A DNA stretch of 64,000 nt from an uncultured bacterium (GCA_965531145.1 CBESOE010000007.1:36-64035); one strand, 5' to 3'. Numbered from the stretch's first letter, positions 7,208-59,113 are shown. The notes: a model not told the origin generated them from the sequence alone. Program-made: numbers and translations.

Positions 7208-8422
7208 ATGCAGCAGATACTTCACGTTGACATGGATGCCTTCTTCGTTTCGGTGGAGGAACTGGGCGACCCATCGCTCATCGGGTTACCGGTGGTGGTG
7301 GGCGGCCCGGCGGAGACCCGGGGCGTGGTGGCCGCCGCCTCCTATGAAGCACGAAAGTATGGTATCCACTCCGCCATGTCCATGGCCCGGGCGCAGCAGC
7401 TCTGCCCCTCGCTGGTCCGGGTCTCCAATCGTGGCAGCGACTACTCGGCCTGGTCCCGCTCGGTCTTCGACATCTTCCGGCGCTACACGCCGTGGGTCGA
7501 GCAGACTTCCATCGACGAGGGCTATCTCGATCTCACCGGTTTCGAATCCCTCTATGGCAACCTGGTGCCCGTCTGTGCCAGGATCCGTCAGGCCGTGTTC
7601 GACGAGCTGGGCCTGCAGTGCTCCCTGGGGCTCTCCACCTCCCGCATGGTCTCCAAGGTCGCTTCCGAGCTGGGCAAGCCACGGGGGATGGTGGTGGTGC
7701 TCCCCGGTCAGGAAGCCGCCTTTCTCCGGCCGCTGGACGTGGGACGGATCCCCGGTATCGGGCCGAAGATGCAGGAGCAGCTGCAGCTGATGGGCATTCG
7801 AACCGTGGGTGACCTGCAGGGCCTCGACCCGAAGACGCTCGAGGAACGGTTCGGCAGCCACGGCCCGTCCCTGCTGCGCCGGGCCCGGGGTGAGGACCGG
7901 TCCCCGGTGCGGATCGAACGGCGGCAGCCGAAGTCCATCGGCGCCGAGACCACCTTTCCCACCGACCTCACCGACCGGGACCAGGTGCGGGCAGCCCTGC
8001 GGCGGCTGGTGGAAAAATCGGCCCGTCGCATGCGGCGCAAGGGGTTCGGCTGTAGCTGTGTGACGGTGAAGCTGCGTTCGGACAAGTTCAAGACCACCAC
8101 CGCCGCCTTCACCACCGATGAGCCCACCTGGGTTGACCAGCGATTGTTCGACACCGCCACCGGGCTGCTGGACAAGCTGTGGGGCGGAAGGTTCCCGGTG
8201 CGCCTGGTGGGGGTGCGCTTCACTCATTTCAAACCAATGGAAAATTCCCAGCAGTCCCTGTTCGACGAACCCGACCGTGGAGAACAGCTGGTGACCAGCA
8301 TTGACATGGTACGGGACCGCTTCGGTTTCGACGCGGTGCGAACCGGCCTGGAGTCGCGTACAGGTCAGAAGAAGTCGGAGAAATACTGGGGCGGATTTCA
8401 GAAGGAACAAGACAAGAGCTAA
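7208..8422 (+). CDS. dinB: DNA polymerase IV (Y-family translesion polymerase)
   Basis: N-terminal ILHVDMDAFFVSVE with catalytic DMD. Y-family palm, thumb and little-finger signatures (SIDEGYLD, SKVASELGKP). Length 404 aa. Confidence 0.9.
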   Translation: MQQILHVDMDAFFVSVEELGDPSLIGLPVVVGGPAETRGVVAAASYEARKYGIHSAMSMARAQQLCPSLVRVSNRGSDYSAWSRSVFDIFRRYTPWVEQTSIDEGYLDLTGFESLYGNLVPVCARIRQAVFDELGLQCSLGLSTSRMVSKVASELGKPRGMVVVLPGQEAAFLRPLDVGRIPGIGPKMQEQLQLMGIRTVGDLQGLDPKTLEERFGSHGPSLLRRARGEDRSPVRIERRQPKSIGAETTFPTDLTDRDQVRAALRRLVEKSARRMRRKGFGCSCVTVKLRSDKFKTTTAAFTTDEPTWVDQRLFDTATGLLDKLWGGRFPVRLVGVRFTHFKPMENSQQSLFDEPDRGEQLVTSIDMVRDRFGFDAVRTGLESRTGQKKSEKYWGGFQKEQDKS

Positions 8423-35575: not shown

Positions 35576-36777
35576 TCAATCAAATGAAACCGAAGCGTAA
35601 AACCGTCATCATCTGGTCCATTGTCATCCTGCTGGTCCTGCTCCTGGCCTGGGCCATGCGCCCCAAGCCGGTGGAAGCCGACTTTGCTTCCATCACGCGC
35701 GGTTCAATCCAGGTGACCATCGACGAGGAAGGGGAGACCCGGGTGCGCGACCGCTTCACCGTGTCGGCGCCCATGGCCGGCCGTGTGCTGCGTATCGAGC
35801 TGGAGCCCGGTGAGCCGGTGGTGGGCGGCGAGACCGTGGTGGCCACCTTCAGGCCCACCGATCCGGTGCTGCTGGATGCCCGCACCAGGGCCCAGAATGA
35901 GGCCCGGGTGGGGTCGGCCAAGGCCGCCCTGGGCACGGCCGAAGCCGAGGTCGAGCAGGCCCGGGCCGAACTGAATTATGCCCTTGGCGAGGAGAAGCGC
36001 TACCGCCGGCTGGCCGAGGACGGGTTCGTTTCCAGCGAGCGGCTGGAGAAGGCGGAGCTGGATGCGCGGACCAGGGAAAAGGGCCTCTCCGCCGCGGAGT
36101 TTTCAGTTCGTTCGGCCGAGCAGGAACTGGCCGTTGCCCGGGCATCGCTGGTGGAAGCCCCCAGGGCCGGCGACAAGCGGAACATCATCATCCGCGCCCC
36201 GGTGGACGGGGTGGTGCTGCAGCGCTTTCACTGGAGCGAGGGGGTGGTGCCGGTGGGCGAACCGCTGATCGAGATCGCCGACCCCGCCGACCTGGAGATC
36301 GTTTCCGACCTGCTCTCCTCCGATGCGGTGAAGGTCCGCCATGGCCAGAAGGTGCTCATCGAGCGCTGGGGCGGGGAAAAGAACCTGGAGGGTGTGATCC
36401 GCCGCGTAGAGCCATACGGCTTCACCAAGTACTCCGCCCTGGGCGTGGAAGAGCAGCGGGTCAATGTCATCGTCGATTTCACCAATCCCCGGGAGGCATG
36501 GGCCGCCCTGGGGGATGGCTATCGGGTGGAACTGCGCATCGTGATCCAGGAGGCCGATGACGTCCTGCTTGTGCCCACCAGCAGCCTCTTCCGCGTGGAC
36601 GAGGACCAGGCCGTGTTTGCCGTGCGCGACGGCAAGGCCACGCTCACCACCGTGGAGATCGGCAAGCGCAACGGCCTTCACGGCGAACTGCTCTCAGGCC
36701 TGGAGGAAGGCGCTACGGTTCTCGTGCATCCCGGTGATGCCATCGAGGACGGGGTGAAGGTGGCGGAGCGGTCGTGA
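35572..36777 (+). CDS. HlyD-family membrane fusion protein (MacA/DevB-like periplasmic adaptor)
   Basis: N-terminal TM anchor. Long coiled-coil region (AEAEVEQARAELNYA...). Beta-barrel/lipoyl-like RAPVDGVVLQ motif. Confidence 0.8.
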   Translation: MINQMKPKRKTVIIWSIVILLVLLLAWAMRPKPVEADFASITRGSIQVTIDEEGETRVRDRFTVSAPMAGRVLRIELEPGEPVVGGETVVATFRPTDPVLLDARTRAQNEARVGSAKAALGTAEAEVEQARAELNYALGEEKRYRRLAEDGFVSSERLEKAELDARTREKGLSAAEFSVRSAEQELAVARASLVEAPRAGDKRNIIIRAPVDGVVLQRFHWSEGVVPVGEPLIEIADPADLEIVSDLLSSDAVKVRHGQKVLIERWGGEKNLEGVIRRVEPYGFTKYSALGVEEQRVNVIVDFTNPREAWAALGDGYRVELRIVIQEADDVLLVPTSSLFRVDEDQAVFAVRDGKATLTTVEIGKRNGLHGELLSGLEEGATVLVHPGDAIEDGVKVAERS

Positions 36778-36853
36778 CCCCGGACCACATCAAGGAGTAT
36801 TTGAGAGGGTTCATCAACGCCGTGATTAGATCCGTGCGTAGCTTTTCCTATCC

Positions 36854-37096
36854 TTAACGATCCCTGCCGATTTTTCTACGCAGTCCATACAGACCGGCAA
36901 TGCCACTGCCCAGGAGAATCATCGTCGCCGGTTCGGGGACCGGGGTCGGTGATGCATGGGTAGGCCGCTTTGAGCCGCCAGGGCCGGTCTGGTTGCCGAA
37001 TCCGTCATAACTGTCTGCCATCACCACTGTTTGACCGATCAGGAGAATCCCCAGAACCAGTAACAGCACCATCATGAGTTGATGCGAATGACTCAT
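36854..37096 (-). CDS. PEP-CTERM sorting-domain micro-protein (80 aa; mature region about 27 aa)
   Basis: Signal peptide MSHSHQLMMVLLLVLGILLIGQTVVMA, then DSYDGFGNQTGPGGSKRPTHASPTPV. The C-terminus is VPEPATMILLGSGIAGLYGLRRKIGRDR: PEP motif, TM helix and an Arg/Lys cluster. RBS GGAGGACAGAG lies immediately upstream of the ATG at 37096. The longer 164-codon ORF in the track starts at a GTG and is rejected. Confidence 0.7.
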   Translation of the reverse strand: MSHSHQLMMVLLLVLGILLIGQTVVMADSYDGFGNQTGPGGSKRPTHASPTPVPEPATMILLGSGIAGLYGLRRKIGRDR

Positions 37097-37174
37097 CTCT
37101 GTCCTCCCCGTGGTCCGCTTTTGATGAGTGATTGCGGACTCGTCGAGATCGATCAATACCCGCTCAGTCAACAC

Positions 37175-37190
37175 TGCAACCCTCGTGCCA
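37175..37190 (-). promoter_or_regulatory. Sigma-54 (RpoN) -24/-12 promoter TGGCACGagggTTGCA upstream of the PEP-CTERM micro-protein
   Basis: The minus strand reads TGGCACG-N4-TTGCA, a full match to the sigma-54 consensus (TGGCACG-N4-TTGCW). It lies about 80 nt upstream of the ATG at 37096. Confidence 0.55.
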
Positions 37191-37344
37191 ATTGATCTAC
37201 CAATGTAATCTATTGCAAGAAAGTGGCTTGTTGACTTCGGGCAATTCCGTTCCACCCGGATTCGCTTCCCAGCAGGAAAAGATTTTCCATCGGGAGTTGG
37301 AAAAATAGTTCCGTCGATGAATCGTCGTTGTCCCACCTGATTGT

Positions 37345-38102
37345 TCACGGCGAGGTGCTGTCGGGGCTCGAGGAGGGGGACACGGTGATCGTGCAGCCGG
37401 TGATCAGGGCATCGGAGCCGTCCGAACAGGAGATGCCGCCGGCACCATGCGGGGAACCGTATTCCGGCCTGGTGCCGCGGATGGTGCAGCCGATGATTTC
37501 CGGGGAGGAATCATTGCAGAAGATGGCACCGGCGTATGAAGTTTGAAAAAGAGCGATGTTGTCCTCGATCACGCAGTTTTCGATCAGCGCATCGGCGTTG
37601 TAATAGCAGAGAATAGCCAAACCAGGGCCCCTGGCGCTGCAGTCCGTGATGACGCAATCTTTGATAGTGGGCGACGCCACGTAACAATTGATGCCGCCCC
37701 CACCGCCATTTGTCCACAGGTGTGCGAAATCGTCAACCAGGCCGTTTTTATGGTGAATCCCTCAACCACCGAATCCCGGCCTTCGCCGTTGTGGAAGTAA
37801 AATCCCCGGTGCTGATCTGAAACAGTGCCGTCGCAGTCGATGATGCAGGTTTCCGCGCCGTTCCCGGAGCGGACCGTGATCGCCCTGCCCTGGAAATCGA
37901 GGTCCCGGTTGCCCGGGCCTTCGTATACACCGTCAGCCACCAGCACGGTGTCTCCATTCACCGCAGCGTCAATGCCGGCCTGGATGGTGGACTGATCGGC
38001 CGGGACACGGATCTCGGCGGCCAGGGTGGCGGGGGAGTGAAGGAGGAGAAGAGTGAGTGAATAAAATGCGGCCCATTTCATGCGCTGCGCACACATTGTC
38101 AA
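37345..38102 (-). pseudogene. Secreted right-handed parallel beta-helix repeat protein interrupted by a -1 frameshift in an A5/T5 homopolymer (or a sequencing error)
   Basis: The N-terminal part (38102 down to about 37750) and the C-terminal part (37761 down to 37345) are in different frames. Both carry beta-helix repeats (GFTIK..; ASPTIKDCVITDC; ALIENCVIEDN; IIGCTIRG; ALITGCTIT). The frames rejoin if one A is added to the cataaaaacggc tract (plus-strand T5 at 37745-37749). Signal peptide MKWAAFYSLTLLLLHSPATLAAE. Confidence 0.55.
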
Positions 38103-38346
38103 AACCTCCCTGATTTTCGTCTATTCCTGCCAGGAAATCTATTGTCAGCCATTGTACATGAATCAATCAGATCCGTTGAAGAGGAAATTTATGACAATTA
38201 TCTGAAGAATAAATTTCTGGTTCGGTGGCGGGCAAGTGATGATATAATTCCCGTTCACGCCGTGGTTGCCCATCTGTGACCGAGCGTTGCCGGGGAATGG
38301 TCCGGGCAGCGCCTTGGCCCGATTTCTATTTCACTGGAGTTTTGTC

Positions 38347-41300
38347 ATGCGTAACAGCTTTGTCCAGCGGTTGGCCCTCGGCCTGCTGCTCATCCCCATC
38401 CTGGCCTGTCTGGTGGTCGTCTTCGTCAACGAGAGCGGAGGCGCTGAGCCGGAAATCGTGTCTGCCACCGCTCCGGCGGTTCCCATGCTCGGCAAAAACC
38501 CCTCGCCCACGGAGATCGTCCAGTGGAAGCAGGACCGCAAGGAGTTCAAGCGGGAGCGGGAAGAGTGGCTGGAAAGCCTGCACTATGCCGCGCCGGGCAC
38601 CGACTGGAAGGCCATCGAGGCAAGCAACCGGCTGAACAACATCCAGCGCCGGCAGGAACTGGACGCAGCGCAGAGCCGGGGAGCAGCGCCGGTACGGGGA
38701 ACCCAGTGGAACGAGGTGGGCAGCAACAACCAGGCTGGCCGCACCCGCTGGTCGGCCTGGAGCCCGGATGACGACATCCTCTACGTCGGTTCGGACAACG
38801 GCGGTGTCTGGAAGGGAAACCTCAACGGCAGCAGCTGGCAGCCGATCAGCGACGACATCGGCTACGGCGCCAACCAGGTCTATGTCACCCCGGGCAGCCC
38901 CAAGGTGATTACCTACTGCGGCTACAACGGTGAGATCTATTTCAGCACCAATGAGGGCAACACCTGGACCGAGCCCGGCGGCTTCGAAAGCGAAGACCTC
39001 TGGGAGATCGTCCGCATCGTTCTCGATCAGGGCAGCCCGAGAACGCTCTACCTGATGGCCCGGGGCGACCACGAGACCCACGGCACCGGTTTCCACCTCT
39101 ACCGCTCCACCGACGGCGGCCTGAATTACAGCTATGTTTACGACGCGGGCAACTGGCCCCGCGCCGACATCTGGATCGACCGGGTGGCCCCCGGCCCGCT
39201 CTACATGATGGTGGGCCCCACCATGTTCGTCTCCGACAACGGGGGCAGCAGTTTCACCGAACTGGGCACCGCCCCGGTGCAGGCGGCCTACGTGGAGCTG
39301 GCCGGCTCCGAGGCCGGGGCGCCCACCTTCTACGCGGCCCTGCGAACCAACAGCGGCAGCTGGCGGATGTACCGCTCCACCGACGGCGGGATGAACTGGC
39401 AGGACCGGCACGCGATCAACGATTTCTGGGAGAACGTCGGCGCCTCGATCACTGATCCAGACCTGGTTCTCTTTGCCGGGGTGGAGGTCTGGCGTTCCAC
39501 CGACGGCGCCGGCAACTTCTCCATCGTCAATGGCTGGGGTGAGTATTACGGCGACCCGGAGAACAAGCTGCACGCCGACAACCCCAGCATGCAGACCCTC
39601 TGGATCGACGGCCAGGAGGTCTTCCTGATCAACACCGACGGTGGCTCCTACAAGTCATACGACGGTGTGGAGACGGTACAGAACATCTCGCTCTCGGGCC
39701 TGGGCATCAGCCAGTACTACGACATCTTCACCAGCGCCACCGACCCCTACCTGGTGGCCGCCGGCGCCCAGGACCAGGGCTACCAGGTCTCCAACCCGGA
39801 CGAGACCAGGGATCCCTTCCTCAACTTCGACCAGATCATCAGCGGCGACTACGGCCACCTGACCTCCACCAACCGCAACCACAACTTCCTCTTCAGCGTC
39901 TACCCGGGGTTCATCCTGGTTCAGGTCACCGAGGAATACCGGAACACCTGGGGTCTGGACTTTCCTTCCGGCGCCACCTACAACGCCTGGATGCCCCCGC
40001 TGCTGGCCGATCCGCTGGACGAGTACAACTTCTACTTCTGTGCCGACCACCTCTGGTACTACGACCGGATCGACCAGTCCAGAGACTACAGCATGACCGA
40101 ACTGCCCTACGATTTCGCCGCCGACGGCGGCTCGTTCGTCTCCGGGCTGGCCATCTCCCCGGCAGACAACAACCGCTGGTATACGGTGGGCAATGCCGGT
40201 AACTTCTGGTATTCCAGTGACGGTGGTGTCAACTGGACAATGTCCGAGGACACCGGCCCGGGAAACAGCTACCTCTACGGCACCTCGATCATCGCCTCGC
40301 CCACCGACCCGCTCACCTGCTGGGCCGGGGGCAGCGGCTACGACAACCCGGCGGTCTACCGCACCATCGACGGCGGGGTGACCTGGGAGGCCATGGGTGC
40401 GGGGCTGCCCTCCACCCTGGTCTACATGCTGGCCTTTGACAACGAACGGGACCAGCGGATCTTTGCCGCCACCGAGGCCGGGCCCTACGAGTTCGACACC
40501 TACACCCGGACCTGGTCCAGCATTCTCGGCACCGAGGCACCACTCACCACCTACTGGGCGGTTGAAGGGGTGCCCGAGCTGGGCGTGGTCCGTTTCGGCA
40601 CCTACGGCCGGGGCATCTGGGACTACACGCCCGAACCGACGATCAACACCGGTGTCCTCACCGGCGCCGGGCCGGCCTATGACAACCCGCCCCGGGTGCA
40701 CCTCTTCCCGCCGGAGGACGGTGCCGAGCCGGCCTACTCATTCACGGCGTACGGTGCTGACCATTACGGCGCCAATGTGGCCGCCGGTGATGTGACCGGC
40801 GATGGTTTCGACGAAGTTATCACCGGCGCTGGGCCGGGGGACATTTTCGGTCCCCATGTCCGCGGATTCACCGTGGCCGGGGCCCCGATCCCCGGGCTCA
40901 GTTTCCTCGCCTACGGCACCAACAAATACGGGGTGAACGTGGCGGCCGGGGATATCGACGCCGATGGCTATGACGAGGTGATCACCGGCGCCGGTCCGGG
41001 CGCCGTCTTCGGCCCCCACGTGCGGGCCTTCGACTACGATGGGACTCCCGGTGTCACCTCGGTCTCCGGGGTGAGTTACTTTGCCTACGGGACGCTCAAA
41101 TATGGCGTCAACGTGGCTGCCGGCGACCTGGACGGTGACGGCTATGACGAGATCGTCACCGGCGCCGGCCCGGGCGCGGTGTTCGGACCCCACGTGCGCG
41201 GCTGGAATGTGGACGGCGGGCCGGCAACCTCCATGTCCGGGGTCAGCTACTTCGCCTACGGGACACTGAAGTACGGTGTCAACGTGGCCTGCGGCGATGT

Positions 41301-46390: not shown

Positions 46391-46617
46391 GGGATAATCC
46401 TCCGTCAACGAGATATTGGGGCAGCTATGCTGGTGAGTAGGTGCAGGTGGCGCCCTGGTTCAACCGGGAGCTGGCGGGGCGAGCGCCGATGGGGTACAAC
46501 CTTTTCGATCCAACCTCTTCCCTGTAATATACTGCCTCCGGGCCGTAAACGTCACTGGTGACGCGGACCGGCGGAGTGTCCCGGCCGCGGGTGACCGCCA
46601 TTCTGGAGACCGTTTTG

Positions 46618-47592
46618 GTGAGTGCAAAGAAGAAAAAAAAGAGTGAACCGGACACCGTCACGGACAGCACGGCGGCGGAGGATGACCTCGAACTGCTGGT
46701 GCCCGAACTGGTGGAGGGAGAACCGGAAGGGCAGGGGTTGGTCCCTGCCGACCCGGTCCGCCGCTACCTGGCGGAGATCTCGCGTTTCAAGCCGCTCTCC
46801 CGCGAGGAGGAGCACGAACTGGCCATGCGCTATCGCGAGGAGGGCGACCTGGAGGCGGCCAGGATCCTGGTCAGCGCCAACCTCAAACAGGTGGTACGTC
46901 TGGCCTTCATGTTCAGCCGGTTCTACCAGAACGTGATGGACCTGGTCCAGGAGGGCAATGTCGGCCTGATGCAGGCGGTGCAGCGTTTCGATCCATTCCG
47001 CGGTACCCGGCTTTCCACCTACGCCACGTTCTGGATCCGGGCCTACATGATCAAGTTCCTCACCGACAACTGGCGCCTGGTGCGGGTGGGGACCACCAAC
47101 GCGCGGCGCAAGCTGCTGTTCAACCTGCAAAAGGAGAAGGCACGGCTGGAATCCATGGGGATCGGTTACGGCCCCAAGCTGCTGGCCGAAAAGTTCGGCG
47201 CTTCAGAGCAGGACATCCGTGATATCGAGGAGAGCATCGGTTCATCGGATCTCTCCCTGGATCAGCCGCTGGGGTTTGACAGCGACCGCAGCTTCGGCGA
47301 TGTACTGGCCGACGGCGACGAACCGCTGGAAGATGTGCTGGCCAACGAGGACTTCCTCCGGGTCTTCCGTGAGAAGGTTGCCATATTCTCCGAAGAACTG
47401 GACGATCGTGACCGTTTCATCCTGGAGAACCGTCTGATCGCCGAGGAGCCGGTGACCCTGCAGCAGATCGGCGACCGTTATGGCATCACCAGGGAGGGCA
47501 GCCGGCAGGTGGAACGCAAGCTGCTCGGCCGGCTGAAGGAATTCATCCGGACGGAAATGGGAAATCAAACCGGCCCGCAGGACGGCCTTTGA
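46618..47592 (+). CDS. rpoH: RNA polymerase sigma-32 factor (heat-shock sigma)
   Basis: Sigma-70 region 2 (RYLAEISRFKPLSREEEHELA). RpoH box NARRKLLFNLQKEK, matching Q(R/K)KLFFNLR. Region 4 helix-turn-helix. GTG at 46618 with RBS GGAGA. The N-terminus is Lys-rich (VSAKKKKKSE). Confidence 0.8.
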   Translation: MSAKKKKKSEPDTVTDSTAAEDDLELLVPELVEGEPEGQGLVPADPVRRYLAEISRFKPLSREEEHELAMRYREEGDLEAARILVSANLKQVVRLAFMFSRFYQNVMDLVQEGNVGLMQAVQRFDPFRGTRLSTYATFWIRAYMIKFLTDNWRLVRVGTTNARRKLLFNLQKEKARLESMGIGYGPKLLAEKFGASEQDIRDIEESIGSSDLSLDQPLGFDSDRSFGDVLADGDEPLEDVLANEDFLRVFREKVAIFSEELDDRDRFILENRLIAEEPVTLQQIGDRYGITREGSRQVERKLLGRLKEFIRTEMGNQTGPQDGL

Positions 47593-55795: not shown

Positions 55796-58558
55796 TTAGA
55801 AGGTGAACCGCAGACCGAACCGCCAGGAGCGCGGGGTCTGACGATACTTCGGCCGACCGAAGGGGTTGCCGCCCGTGGCTTCGGGGTCGTCCCACTCCCA
55901 GACGGTCATGATCTGGTCGTCGCCAAGCAGGTTGAGCACGTCGAGGAACGCGCCGATGGCATAACGGCTGCCGAAGGGGAAGGTCTTCTCCAGATGGAGA
56001 TCGAACCAGGAGGCGGCCGGCAGGGTGTAGGTGCCGCGGCCCTCGGGGAAGGCCATGTAGTCGTTGTAGCCGCCGCCAACGTATCCCCTTCTGGAATACG
56101 CCAGGCCTGAGCTGTACTCAAAGGCGAGGCCCACATCCACATCCCACGGTGCACGGTAGAGACCGTTCAGCTTCAGGTGGTGGGTGATGTCATCGGGCAG
56201 CAAGCCGTACCAGCCGGCGTCATCGTAGATGTTGCCCAGGCCATACCAGGTGTCATCCGGGGGCGCGTTGGGATCGGCATCCATGAACACACCGATGGTG
56301 TCCGAGCTGCCGCCGCTGTCTCCCCACTCACCCTGGCCGGGGTTGGTGCCCTTTGACTCGCCCCAGGTGTAGGAGCCGAAGACCATGAAGTTGTTCGACA
56401 TCGCCTTGTGGTAGGTCAGTTCCACACCTTCGTAGTCACGCCGCTTCAGACTGGGGTTGGTCACCAGCCAGTCGCCCGACTCAAGCACCACGTCCTCGAT
56501 GAGGTCGCGGGTCTTACCGTTGATGTAACGAAGGCCCATGGCCTGGGTGTCGGTGAGTTTGCGTTCGTAGCCGATGATGAACTTGTCCTGGTGGTGCGGT
56601 TTGAGGTTGGGGTCAAAGCCGTCCAGCGGGAAGAGGGGCTCGCCCTCGTTGCCGCCCTGGGTGAAGTTGTAGTCCCAGGTGCCGTTGTAGGTGGTGCCGT
56701 CGACGTCGGTCCACTGGCCGGTGCCATCGGGGTTCCAAAGGTAGTTGTGGTAGGAACTGGTGGAGGATGAGTTCATCACCCAGCTCATGTTCAGGCCGGT
56801 GAAGTCGTAGAAACGGCCCCAGAAGACCTTGGCCACGTTCACCGAGTCCTTGGTGATGTCCCAGATCGCGCCGATCCGCGGGGCATGGGAATCGATGTCA
56901 AAATAGGTCACGCCCTCGTTGTTCTGCATCTCCAACTGCTCGTAGCGGTAACCGAGGTTGAGGGTCACGTTTTCCGCCACGTCCCAGGTGTCCTGAAGGA
57001 AGGCCACTGTCCCTTCGTTGGTGTTGCTATCGCCTTCCACCTGGAAGCGGACGTCGAGGCTCTCCGGCGCGCCTTCATAGTAGGTGTAGTCGTAGCCGTT
57101 GCCGGGCAGCAGGTTGACTTCAAACTTGTCGGCTTCCAGGTATTCCAGACCGACCTTCAGCGAGTGGTCGCCCAGGACGTCATCGATGTAGTGGGTGTAG
57201 TGCAGTTTGTAGTCGTACTGGGTGGTGTCGTAACCGTAGGTTGAGGCGCCGCCCCAGGTCGCGCTGGTGCCGCGGTCGAAATACTGGGCGTTGGTGGTGT
57301 CGCCGTAGGGAACGATATTCCGGTCCACCGTGGTGCTGCCGAACTTGAACTCGATAAAGGAGTCGGGGGTCAGGATGCCGCGGTAGATGGCCCCGAAGTG
57401 GTCCAGGTCCCGGGTGTCGTAGCGCTGGGACTCGGGAGCCGTGTCGAAATCGTCACGGAACGAGCGGTCAAAGCGCTGGCCGATCCAGGAGGCGTTTATC
57501 GAGTGGTTTTCGGTGATGGACCAGGTCATCTTGAGGAAGGGGGCGATGTTCTCGTCCTCGCGCTCATACTCGTAGCCGTAGTTGGCAAACTGGCTGGATT
57601 CTTTCCAGGTCTGGTCGAGATACTCGAGGGAACCGAAATACCACAGCTTGTCCTGGACGATGGGCCCGCCGATGTTGAACACCGGGATGAAGTATTCCTG
57701 CTCCACCGCACCCACCGCCGAACCGTCGACGTTCTGCTCCGGGTTGCCATCGCCGGGGATGAGCCAGGAAGTGATCAAGCTGCCTTCGAGGCTGTTACCA
57801 CCACTCTTGGTGATCACGTTGGCCACCAGGCCGGTGGCCCGGCCATACTCGGCGGCGAAGCCGTCGGTGAGGATCTGGATCTCCTCGATGGCGTCGAAGT
57901 TGATGTTGTGGCCGTAGCCGTTGGTTTCCGGGTTGCGGGCCGAGATGCCGTCAATGAGGAAGTTGTTCCCCACCTGGCCCTCACCGCGGGTGCTCGGGTT
58001 ACCGTCGCCCGCACCGCCATACTGGGTGTCGGTGCGGCCCTGGACGCCGGGGACGAAATTGAACAGATCCTGGTAACTGCGGGTGGTGGGCAGCCGCGCC
58101 ATCGCGTCCGATTCGAAGGATGTTCCCACCGCGGTGGTGGTGACGTCGATCACCGGCGCCTGGGCGATTACGGTGACTTCTTCGGAGACCTGGGCCGGGG
58201 GCAGCTCGATATCGACCATGGTTTCGGTGCCCAGCTGAACTCTGATCTCGGTCTGGATGACGGTGTGGTAACCGTCCATTTGGGCCTTGACGGTGTAGCG
58301 CCCGGGTGGGACCTGGACAAAGCGGTAGTTGCCTTCGGCGTCGGTAACTGCCTTCCTTGTGCCCTGGAGATTGTCAGATTCAATACTTACCGTTGCACCG
58401 GGAAGCGGGAGTCCTTCGGCGTCCATGATCACGCCTTCAATGGTTCCCACCTCGGCTGCCATTGCTTCCTGAACTGGAAGCGCCCACATGAACAGGAGAA
58501 TGAGCGCCACTCCCAGAGCAGCGTGCATCGAGGTTCTCGCGAACTTCAGTTTGCTCAT
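55796..58558 (-). CDS. TonB-dependent outer-membrane receptor with N-terminal carboxypeptidase-regulatory-like (CarbopepD_reg_2) domain
   Basis: Signal peptide. Ig-like region GVIMDAEGLPLPGATV...YTVKA. Plug and beta-barrel length. C-terminus ...WRFGLRFTF with terminal Phe. RBS GGAGGAG before the ATG at 58558. Confidence 0.8.
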   Translation of the reverse strand: MSKLKFARTSMHAALGVALILLFMWALPVQEAMAAEVGTIEGVIMDAEGLPLPGATVSIESDNLQGTRKAVTDAEGNYRFVQVPPGRYTVKAQMDGYHTVIQTEIRVQLGTETMVDIELPPAQVSEEVTVIAQAPVIDVTTTAVGTSFESDAMARLPTTRSYQDLFNFVPGVQGRTDTQYGGAGDGNPSTRGEGQVGNNFLIDGISARNPETNGYGHNINFDAIEEIQILTDGFAAEYGRATGLVANVITKSGGNSLEGSLITSWLIPGDGNPEQNVDGSAVGAVEQEYFIPVFNIGGPIVQDKLWYFGSLEYLDQTWKESSQFANYGYEYEREDENIAPFLKMTWSITENHSINASWIGQRFDRSFRDDFDTAPESQRYDTRDLDHFGAIYRGILTPDSFIEFKFGSTTVDRNIVPYGDTTNAQYFDRGTSATWGGASTYGYDTTQYDYKLHYTHYIDDVLGDHSLKVGLEYLEADKFEVNLLPGNGYDYTYYEGAPESLDVRFQVEGDSNTNEGTVAFLQDTWDVAENVTLNLGYRYEQLEMQNNEGVTYFDIDSHAPRIGAIWDITKDSVNVAKVFWGRFYDFTGLNMSWVMNSSSTSSYHNYLWNPDGTGQWTDVDGTTYNGTWDYNFTQGGNEGEPLFPLDGFDPNLKPHHQDKFIIGYERKLTDTQAMGLRYINGKTRDLIEDVVLESGDWLVTNPSLKRRDYEGVELTYHKAMSNNFMVFGSYTWGESKGTNPGQGEWGDSGGSSDTIGVFMDADPNAPPDDTWYGLGNIYDDAGWYGLLPDDITHHLKLNGLYRAPWDVDVGLAFEYSSGLAYSRRGYVGGGYNDYMAFPEGRGTYTLPAASWFDLHLEKTFPFGSRYAIGAFLDVLNLLGDDQIMTVWEWDDPEATGGNPFGRPKYRQTPRSWRFGLRFTF

Positions 58559-59113
58559 TCCGATCACTCCTCCTTTCGGCCGGTACGGGGGAGCACTGGC
58601 TCCGCCGCTGGCGGGCCGATCTGTTTTTTTTCTTTTTTCTTGTTGTTATGTATTGCTTGTTCCGCCGCGTTGTTCACCGGTTACGGTGCGGCCTGTCAGG
58701 CATTCACCTCCTTTCTTCCTCCACCGGCCCGCAAGGCCGGACGTTGACCGATGTCACGGCCGGATTCGTACCTACTCAACCGCTTGCACACCAAGGGTAT
58801 CGGCAACAGGGCCCGCCCTGTTGAATGGCATCGGATCGATTCTCCGAACCCCATTGCCTGCAGAGTGCGGTTGTTCCGGTCATTGAAACCAGTCCAGAAC
58901 ACATGAGTTGCAATTTTACTGCCATGATTAGTTGGTTAAACTCTTATGGCCCGTTTATACCAAATTGGTGAAAACTTTACAAGTTACCTCCGGTCGGACC
59001 GTGGGTGGCTGTTTGGGAAGCTCCTTTTCTATCCATTTTCTTGGAGATTGGTTCAAGATTTTGAAGTGTGGCGCAAGGAGGGAGCCGGGTGATGATCCCG
59101 GCATCCCTGCATA

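Follow-up and report, generated by a model that had tools for sequence, protein, structure and literature searches.

The minus strand of the 64-kb stretch of DNA analysed here (the window) carries a perfect, conserved -24/-12 element ahead of a gene for an 80-aa PEP-CTERM micro-protein, and this element, at 37190-37175, very probably works as a functional sigma-54 promoter. The wider model, in which an enhancer-dependent RpoN promoter transcribes a single-gene unit for the micro-protein, is also probable. That PEP-CTERM genes are linked to sigma-54 has been in print since 2006 and has been confirmed experimentally in one case, so that this kind of element is already known. The additions made here are modest: a family of micro-substrates with its promoter, the lack of a PrsR box, a candidate enhancer made of dyads and a strain-specific location within a mosaic region. 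The unit consists of the following features:

36854 to 37096, minus strand: gene for the 80-aa PEP-CTERM micro-protein, with a signal peptide ending in VMA before D, a G/S/P-rich segment of ~25 aa and then PVPEPATMILLGSGIAGLYGLRRK.
37097 to 37164, minus strand: predicted 5′ untranslated leader of ~68 nt, its start near 37164 deduced from the position of the -12 element.
37175 to 37190, minus strand: sigma-54 -24/-12 element TGGCACGAGGGTTGCA, with GG at 37189-37188 and GC at 37177-37176, recognised by consensus and conservation.

A first-pass annotation had described a match to the RpoN consensus, correctly spaced, on the minus strand at 37190-37175. Both points hold, as TGGCACGAGGGTTGCA is read there and its GG and GC lie exactly 10 bp apart within TGGCAC-N5-TTGCW. 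The pattern TGGCACGNNNNTTGCW occurs a single time in the 64 kb when both strands are searched, and none of 100 dinucleotide-preserving shuffles contains a match. When every GG-N10-GC was scored against the 12 specified positions of the consensus, with GG and GC fixed, this was the sole 12/12 site in the window; no site reached 11/12, and the remaining 10/12 sites all fall in coding sequence, with the exception of the one at 58909-58924. The element is intergenic and on the same strand as the 80-aa ORF, its end lying 78 nt from the ATG. The same annotation had placed it in an intergenic stretch of about 250 nt with a GC content far below the window average, which agrees with the 49.4-49.6% measured for the gap (37097-37344/5) against 64.8% for the whole window, a value within the lowest 1.3% of 249-nt windows. 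A promoter and terminator scan of 36600-38400 detected no sigma-70-like promoter in the gap on the strand of the gene, and motif searches of the six-frame translations found neither rpoN nor an RpoN box in the 64-kb window.

The ORF itself is recognised by both sorting-domain profiles, PF07589 (33.5 bits, cutoff 20.7) and TIGR02595 (27.6 bits, cutoff 16). Read directly, the N-terminal hydrophobic core ends in VMA before D and the C-terminus runs VPEP-ATMILLGSGIAGLYGL-RRK, so that the protein combines a signal peptide with the PEP motif, transmembrane helix and basic cluster that mark PEP-CTERM substrates. Motif searches of the six-frame translations detected no second PEP-CTERM protein in the window, which encodes no exosortase either. 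A Shine-Dalgarno sequence, GGAGG, lies at 37107-37103, 6 nt ahead of the ATG. Transcription from sigma-54 promoters starts about 12 nt downstream of the GC, a rule that gives the predicted start near 37164. The leader was also considered as a riboregulatory element, a candidate rejected on account of its lack of a conserved or unusually stable RNA fold (z = 0.22) and of any Rfam match, either for the region at E <= 1 or for the whole window at gathering scores. A conserved GGG at 37161-37159, which would occupy +4 to +6 of the predicted transcript, recurs at the same offsets in six homologous loci (L004, L006, L007, L172, L174 and L175) and could reflect a constraint on the initially transcribed region or an operator. 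In many cases GATC comes about 6 nt after this GGG (CGGGnAnnGATCG), in the window at 37147-37150.

Three other assemblies encode an identical protein behind a gap that is 100% identical, which is uninformative about constraint, and divergent homologues were therefore used instead. Protein searches delineated a family of 72-100-aa PEP-CTERM proteins of common build, with a signal peptide ending in A-x-A before D, a short G/S/P-rich segment and then SPTPVPEPATMILLGSG..., and contigs were fetched for nine family members. The seven other family loci with enough upstream sequence all keep a -24/-12 element of the GG-N10-GC type on the coding strand, at these distances between motif end and ATG:

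L004, coding strand: TGGCACGCGGGTTGCA, 78 nt.
L005, coding strand: TGGCATCAGTATTGCA, 78 nt.
L006, coding strand: TGGCATACCCATTGCA, 41 nt.
L007, coding strand: TGGTATAACTATTGCA, 72 nt.
L172/L173, coding strand: CGGCATACAGGTTGCA, ~84 nt.
L174, coding strand: TGGCATACCAGTTGCA, 79 nt.
L175, coding strand: TGGAATACCAATTGCA, 73 nt.

Homologues with 38-75% protein identity thus retain [T/C]GG[C/T/A]A[C/T]-N5-TTGCA within diverged flanks. In a motif-anchored alignment the positions of the -24/-12 element carry 1.2-1.3 bits each, compared with a baseline of ~0.45 in non-coding sequence, and the element is the most conserved non-coding block at the family loci; the neighbouring genes differ from locus to locus, which indicates that the element travels with the gene. 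The sigma-54 motif is absent at the most distant member, P0031 (L176/L177), which was excluded from the family statistics. When the window and every one of the 177 fetched loci were searched with an nhmmer profile built on the family promoter, nothing beyond the family itself was retrieved.

The association extends to PEP-CTERM genes at large. Family-profile scans of genome and metagenome collections provided 159 further loci, which match mainly in the sorting domain; in one genome-contig profile search the matches were confined to the C-terminal domain, and 63 of the 80 came from Desulfobacterota-type MAGs. Upstream sequence of 150 nt or more was available for 156 PEP-CTERM ORFs; of these, 50 have a sense-strand site of 10/12 or better within 300 nt, versus none on the antisense strand of the same 156 stretches. 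The background in these loci predicts about 2 sites where 50 are seen, which amounts to an enrichment of about 20-fold, and the median distance from these 50 other promoters to the ATG is 83.5 nt. Together with the conserved element and the literature (PMC1569441, PMC9850573), this enrichment bears out the earlier proposal that a sigma-54 promoter serves the PEP-CTERM gene.

Haft et al. 2006 (BMC Biol 4:29; PMC1569441) reported that PEP-CTERM genes are mostly single-gene units behind large gaps, and that in Proteobacteria 99 of 167 such gaps contain a motif 1 followed, about 63 nt further on, by motif 2, which is of the sigma-54 type. For motif 1, known as the PEP-CTERM box, only a logo was published; the box is 17 nt long, ends in TTTACA and lies 32-92 nt (mean 63) upstream of motif 2, the end of which is 71 +/- 38 nt from the start codon (PMC1569441). 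The arrangement in the window resembles that of motif 2 in being a single-gene PEP-CTERM unit preceded by over 200 nt of non-coding sequence and in having its GG/GC element some 70-80 nt before the start (here 78, published 71 +/- 38). It differs from the published pattern in that the motif 1 box is missing, two GGAA-N6-TTCC dyads being found instead about 95-110 nt upstream, and in that the host comes from a poorly sampled lineage, as indicated by the homologues of the DinB of the window (7208-8419), which show 73-85% identity in a few MAGs and then drop to 49% or less. The experimentally confirmed case is the PEP-CTERM gene pepA of Aquincola tertiaricarbonis, which is RpoN1-dependent and has a mapped start behind a TGGCAC...CTGCTT promoter (PMC9850573). 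Like pepA (Aquincola tertiaricarbonis RN12, Zoogloea resiniphila), the micro-protein gene stands behind a promoter of the TGGCAC...TGC type, with the differences that RpoN dependence and the start were established experimentally in Aquincola whereas here they are predicted from the sequence, and that PepA is a protein of ~260 aa from a betaproteobacterium with PrsK/PrsR and a predicted enhancer, as opposed to a product of 80 aa and another upstream motif here (PMC9850573).

Upstream of the -24/-12 element, three further features of the gap were considered as parts of the control region:

37206 to 37218, minus strand: IHF-like element TTGCAATAGATTA, with 2 mismatches to the consensus WATCAANNNNTTR, forming the core of an A/T-rich stretch.
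37275 to 37288, minus strand: proximal dyad GGAAAATCTTTTCC, candidate activator site 2, at -98 from the T of TGGCAC.
37299 to 37312, minus strand: distal dyad GGAACTATTTTTCC, of the form GGAA-N6-TTCC, a candidate for activator site 1, located at -122 relative to the T of TGGCAC.

Both dyads of the window are perfect, 24 bp apart from centre to centre, and, counted from the predicted start, would cover about -148 to -111. The same pair is found at L004 (two perfect dyads at -120 and -96) and at L172 (-122 and -98, one mismatch each), so that the 24-bp arrangement is clear in three of the six members with enough upstream sequence. The contig of L007 starts inside the first dyad, its TTTTCC half ending at the same offset; L005 and L006 have a single imperfect copy each, and L174 has dyads at other offsets (-164 and -146). 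Counting dyads with at most one mismatch, and leaving out L175, 10 are found in 778 nt against 0.62 in shuffles, none of 2000 shuffles reaching 10, and 3 sequences carry the 24-bp pair where shuffling predicts 0.001, again with none of 2000 shuffles reaching 3. No second copy of the pair exists in the window. Judging from this recurrence, the chances that the tandem dyads are an activator site seem evenly balanced. The IHF-like match is shared by L004, L007 and L175, where its offset (-28 or -29) is unchanged and each copy has one mismatch, and is weaker in L005, L006 and L172; a secondary conservation peak (T..AC) at -18..-11 also lies inside the A/T-rich stretch. A role of 37206-37218 as an IHF-type bend site is possible rather than probable, its position at about -54 to -42 being better suited to a bend than to a looping activator. 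The whole arrangement, with distal activator dyads, an A/T-rich IHF-like element between and then the -24/-12 element, is reminiscent of Klebsiella nifH and Pseudomonas Pu, the classical enhancer-dependent promoters with an IHF bend, with the difference that activator, IHF binding and dyad function are deduced here and that the IHF-like site has 2 mismatches.

Other readings of this upstream region place the activator elsewhere or give it another identity. The enhancer had originally been sought in the A/T-rich sequence above the -24 element, quoted as TTGCAATAGATTACATTGGTAGATCAATTGG (37217-37187), which would make the distal dyads irrelevant. This stretch does hold the partly conserved T..AC element at -18..-11 and an imperfect palindrome, TGCAAT-AG-ATTACA. 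However, known enhancer-binding proteins act by looping from roughly 80-150 bp upstream, and at about -54 to -27 the A/T-rich sequence abuts the polymerase footprint, too close for looping. In four members its conserved core matches WATCAANNNNTTR at one constant offset, the tandem dyads, also conserved, are situated farther upstream, and the spacer of motif 1 was never shorter than 32 nt in the published set (PMC1569441), all of which make an enhancer in this position quite improbable.

The identity of the activator was approached through the PEP-CTERM box, since PrsK and PrsR had been put forward as the regulators and PrsK, PrsR and PrsT co-occur in Proteobacteria with sigma-54 motifs ahead of PEP-CTERM genes (PMC1569441). 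From 47 anchored sigma-54 promoters of other PEP-CTERM genes a box was reconstructed as TGTCGGAAnnnTTTACA, which five loci of Desulfobacterota-type MAGs (L012, L033, L036, L081 and L110) contain with 0-2 mismatches, the spacer measuring 62-73 nt, and which was taken to be the PEP-CTERM box because its length, 3′ end and spacer all fit those published. It is absent from all eight family promoters, where even the closest matches differ from it at 4-7 of 14 positions and are located at unrelated places. Thus, PrsK/PrsR control finds no support in cis, either at this promoter or in the family as a whole. Nor does the window offer the proteins: PrsK (TIGR02916), PrsR (TIGR02915) and PrsT (TIGR02917) are all absent from it, motif searches of its six-frame translations found no GAFTGA-type sigma-54 activator, and its two hybrid histidine kinases, tried as PrsK, were rejected, as they score 92 and 71 bits where the cutoff is 300 and match only in the generic kinase core. 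That the promoter nevertheless belongs to the canonical PrsK/PrsR regulon, with PrsR as activator at a PEP-CTERM box, would be in line with the proteobacterial co-occurrence, with the loose likeness of the left half of the dyad (CGGAA, then a T-run) to TGTCGGAAnnnTTTACA, and with the setting of a 57% identity homologue, P0029, which on L172 (8185-10799; also on L173) is the divergent neighbour of an exosortase and a separate EpsI. This exosortase is nearest to the general and XrtA-like models (TIGR02602, 215 bits), a combination that, with a separate EpsI, accompanies the Prs genes in the table of Haft et al. (PMC1569441). However, its XrtA score of 188.6 is below the cutoff of 208, the half-site spacing of the dyads differs from that of the box and they lie about 95-110 nt from the -24 element instead of about 63, which, added to the missing box and the missing Prs genes, leaves PrsR an unlikely activator. 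The lack of the canonical box makes a different or diverged activator likelier than a typical PrsR. The box was present in just 5-7 of the 47 sigma-54 promoters examined, which suggests that most such promoters use other upstream sites, so far undescribed.

The remaining reading, that the -24/-12 match is due to chance or is a relic, with the gene either silent or dependent for its transcription on a sigma-70 promoter or on read-through out of the beta-helix gene upstream, is best weighed against the genomic setting of the cassette, the upstream side of which is occupied by two gene remnants:

37344 to 37398, plus strand: 55-nt relic of the 3′ end of an HlyD-family gene, at the upstream edge of the micro-protein cassette.
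37345 to 38102, minus strand: pseudogene of a right-handed beta-helix protein with a signal peptide, in frames 37584-38102 and 37345-37680, truncated at its 3′ end.

Relatives at ~88% nucleotide identity (L088, which is part of a 3.5-Mb contig, L089 and L090) keep the flanks, with ABC/FtsX/HlyD genes on one side and an FG-GAP/BNR protein on the other, and are missing the segment 36778-38190 of the window (compare L088 13557-13676 and L090 13583-14054). This segment of 1.4 kb, with a GC content of 55.7%, comprises the micro-protein cassette, the beta-helix pseudogene and the HlyD relic, and is a strain-specific indel in a mosaic region. The relic is a diverged direct repeat of 36677-36731 (76% identity), the pair bracketing the cassette, and is 85-89% identical to the HlyD 3′ ends of L089 and L090, to which the end of the HlyD gene in the window is less close; this suggests that recombination brought in the cassette along with a foreign HlyD 3′ end. 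The beta-helix gene is frameshifted near 37690-37735, and its last 17 codons are antisense to the relic; the same split in three other assemblies (L001-L003) points to a pseudogene and not to a sequencing error. The cassette ends 31 nt past the distal dyad, so that the moved or recombined block carries just the gene and its proposed control region. The low GC content is a property shared by the imported mosaic segment and the promoter region itself.

A cassette lying among gene fragments in such a region could be decaying, and the scan of 36600-38400 placed no terminator-like site between it and the upstream ORF, both of which would be expected to favour a silent gene or transcription by read-through. 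Against this, the ORF and its promoter are intact and identical in four assemblies, a 12/12 match is unexpected by chance, the element has been conserved at loci with different flanks and neighbours, the strand of the gene lacks a sigma-70-like promoter, and the beta-helix gene that would supply the read-through is both frameshifted and truncated. A chance match or relic is therefore very improbable.

The mechanism proposed for the functional promoter would start with the binding of sigma-54 RNA polymerase to 37190-37175 as a closed complex, which would be opened by an AAA+ enhancer-binding protein acting from the two dyads (37299-37312 and 37275-37288). Bending of the DNA at the IHF-like A/T-rich element (37206-37218) would allow this activator, presumably encoded outside the window, to reach the polymerase. 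Transcription from near 37164 would then produce an mRNA with a leader of ~68 nt without conserved structure. The translated product would be exported, with its signal peptide cut after VMA, and an exosortase would finally process its C-terminus at the PEP motif, leaving a G/S/P-rich peptide of ~25 residues. A more tentative and somewhat doubtful extension is that the micro-protein family forms a separate sigma-54 regulon within a lineage that is uncultured and little sampled, and that in this regulon the enhancer-binding protein reads the tandem GGAA-N6-TTCC dyads and not the PEP-CTERM box of PrsR. If so, exosortase substrates would have a second enhancer code, independent of the first, and the mature product of ~25 residues would act at the surface or in the matrix as a tightly switched peptide. 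In any case, the general picture of PEP-CTERM/sigma-54 regulation remains unchanged, and the prediction of 2006 that PEP-CTERM genes stand behind sigma-54 promoters is extended to a poorly sampled lineage and to very small substrates. The known PrsR box would not be the sole upstream signal at PEP-CTERM promoters, and the dyads offer a concrete handle for finding the activator, which bears on the regulation of biofilm and floc matrix proteins.

Several minor observations concern the homologous loci and other parts of the window. The contig L172 shares its metagenome of origin with L090, and in tetranucleotide composition it resembles the window with r = 0.90, compared with 0.95-0.97 for the known relatives and 0.4-0.72 for unrelated loci. 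The sorting motif of P0029 is AEP instead of PEP, and this gene is followed on L172 by a second small PEP-CTERM gene (66 aa); tandem small PEP-CTERM genes are also found in L006 and probably in L007. The second intergenic sigma-54-like site of the window, TGGCAGTAAAATTGCA (10/12, minus strand, 58909-58924), lies ~340 nt upstream of a gene at 55796-58567 for a TonB-dependent-receptor-like protein (CarboxypepD_reg, Plug and barrel), and the long leader behind it matches no Rfam family. An RpoH-like sigma factor encoded at 46558-47592 scores just under the proteobacterial RpoH cutoffs. Finally, the segment 19006-27577 encodes a polysaccharide deacetylase near the XrtA-system type (TIGR03006, 205 bits, cutoff 276), together with a malonyl transferase, an ACP, a FabZ-like protein, two ketosynthases, a methyltransferase and glycosyltransferases, a cluster that is conserved in L088 and L090 and that is possibly a lipid-linked polysaccharide locus.
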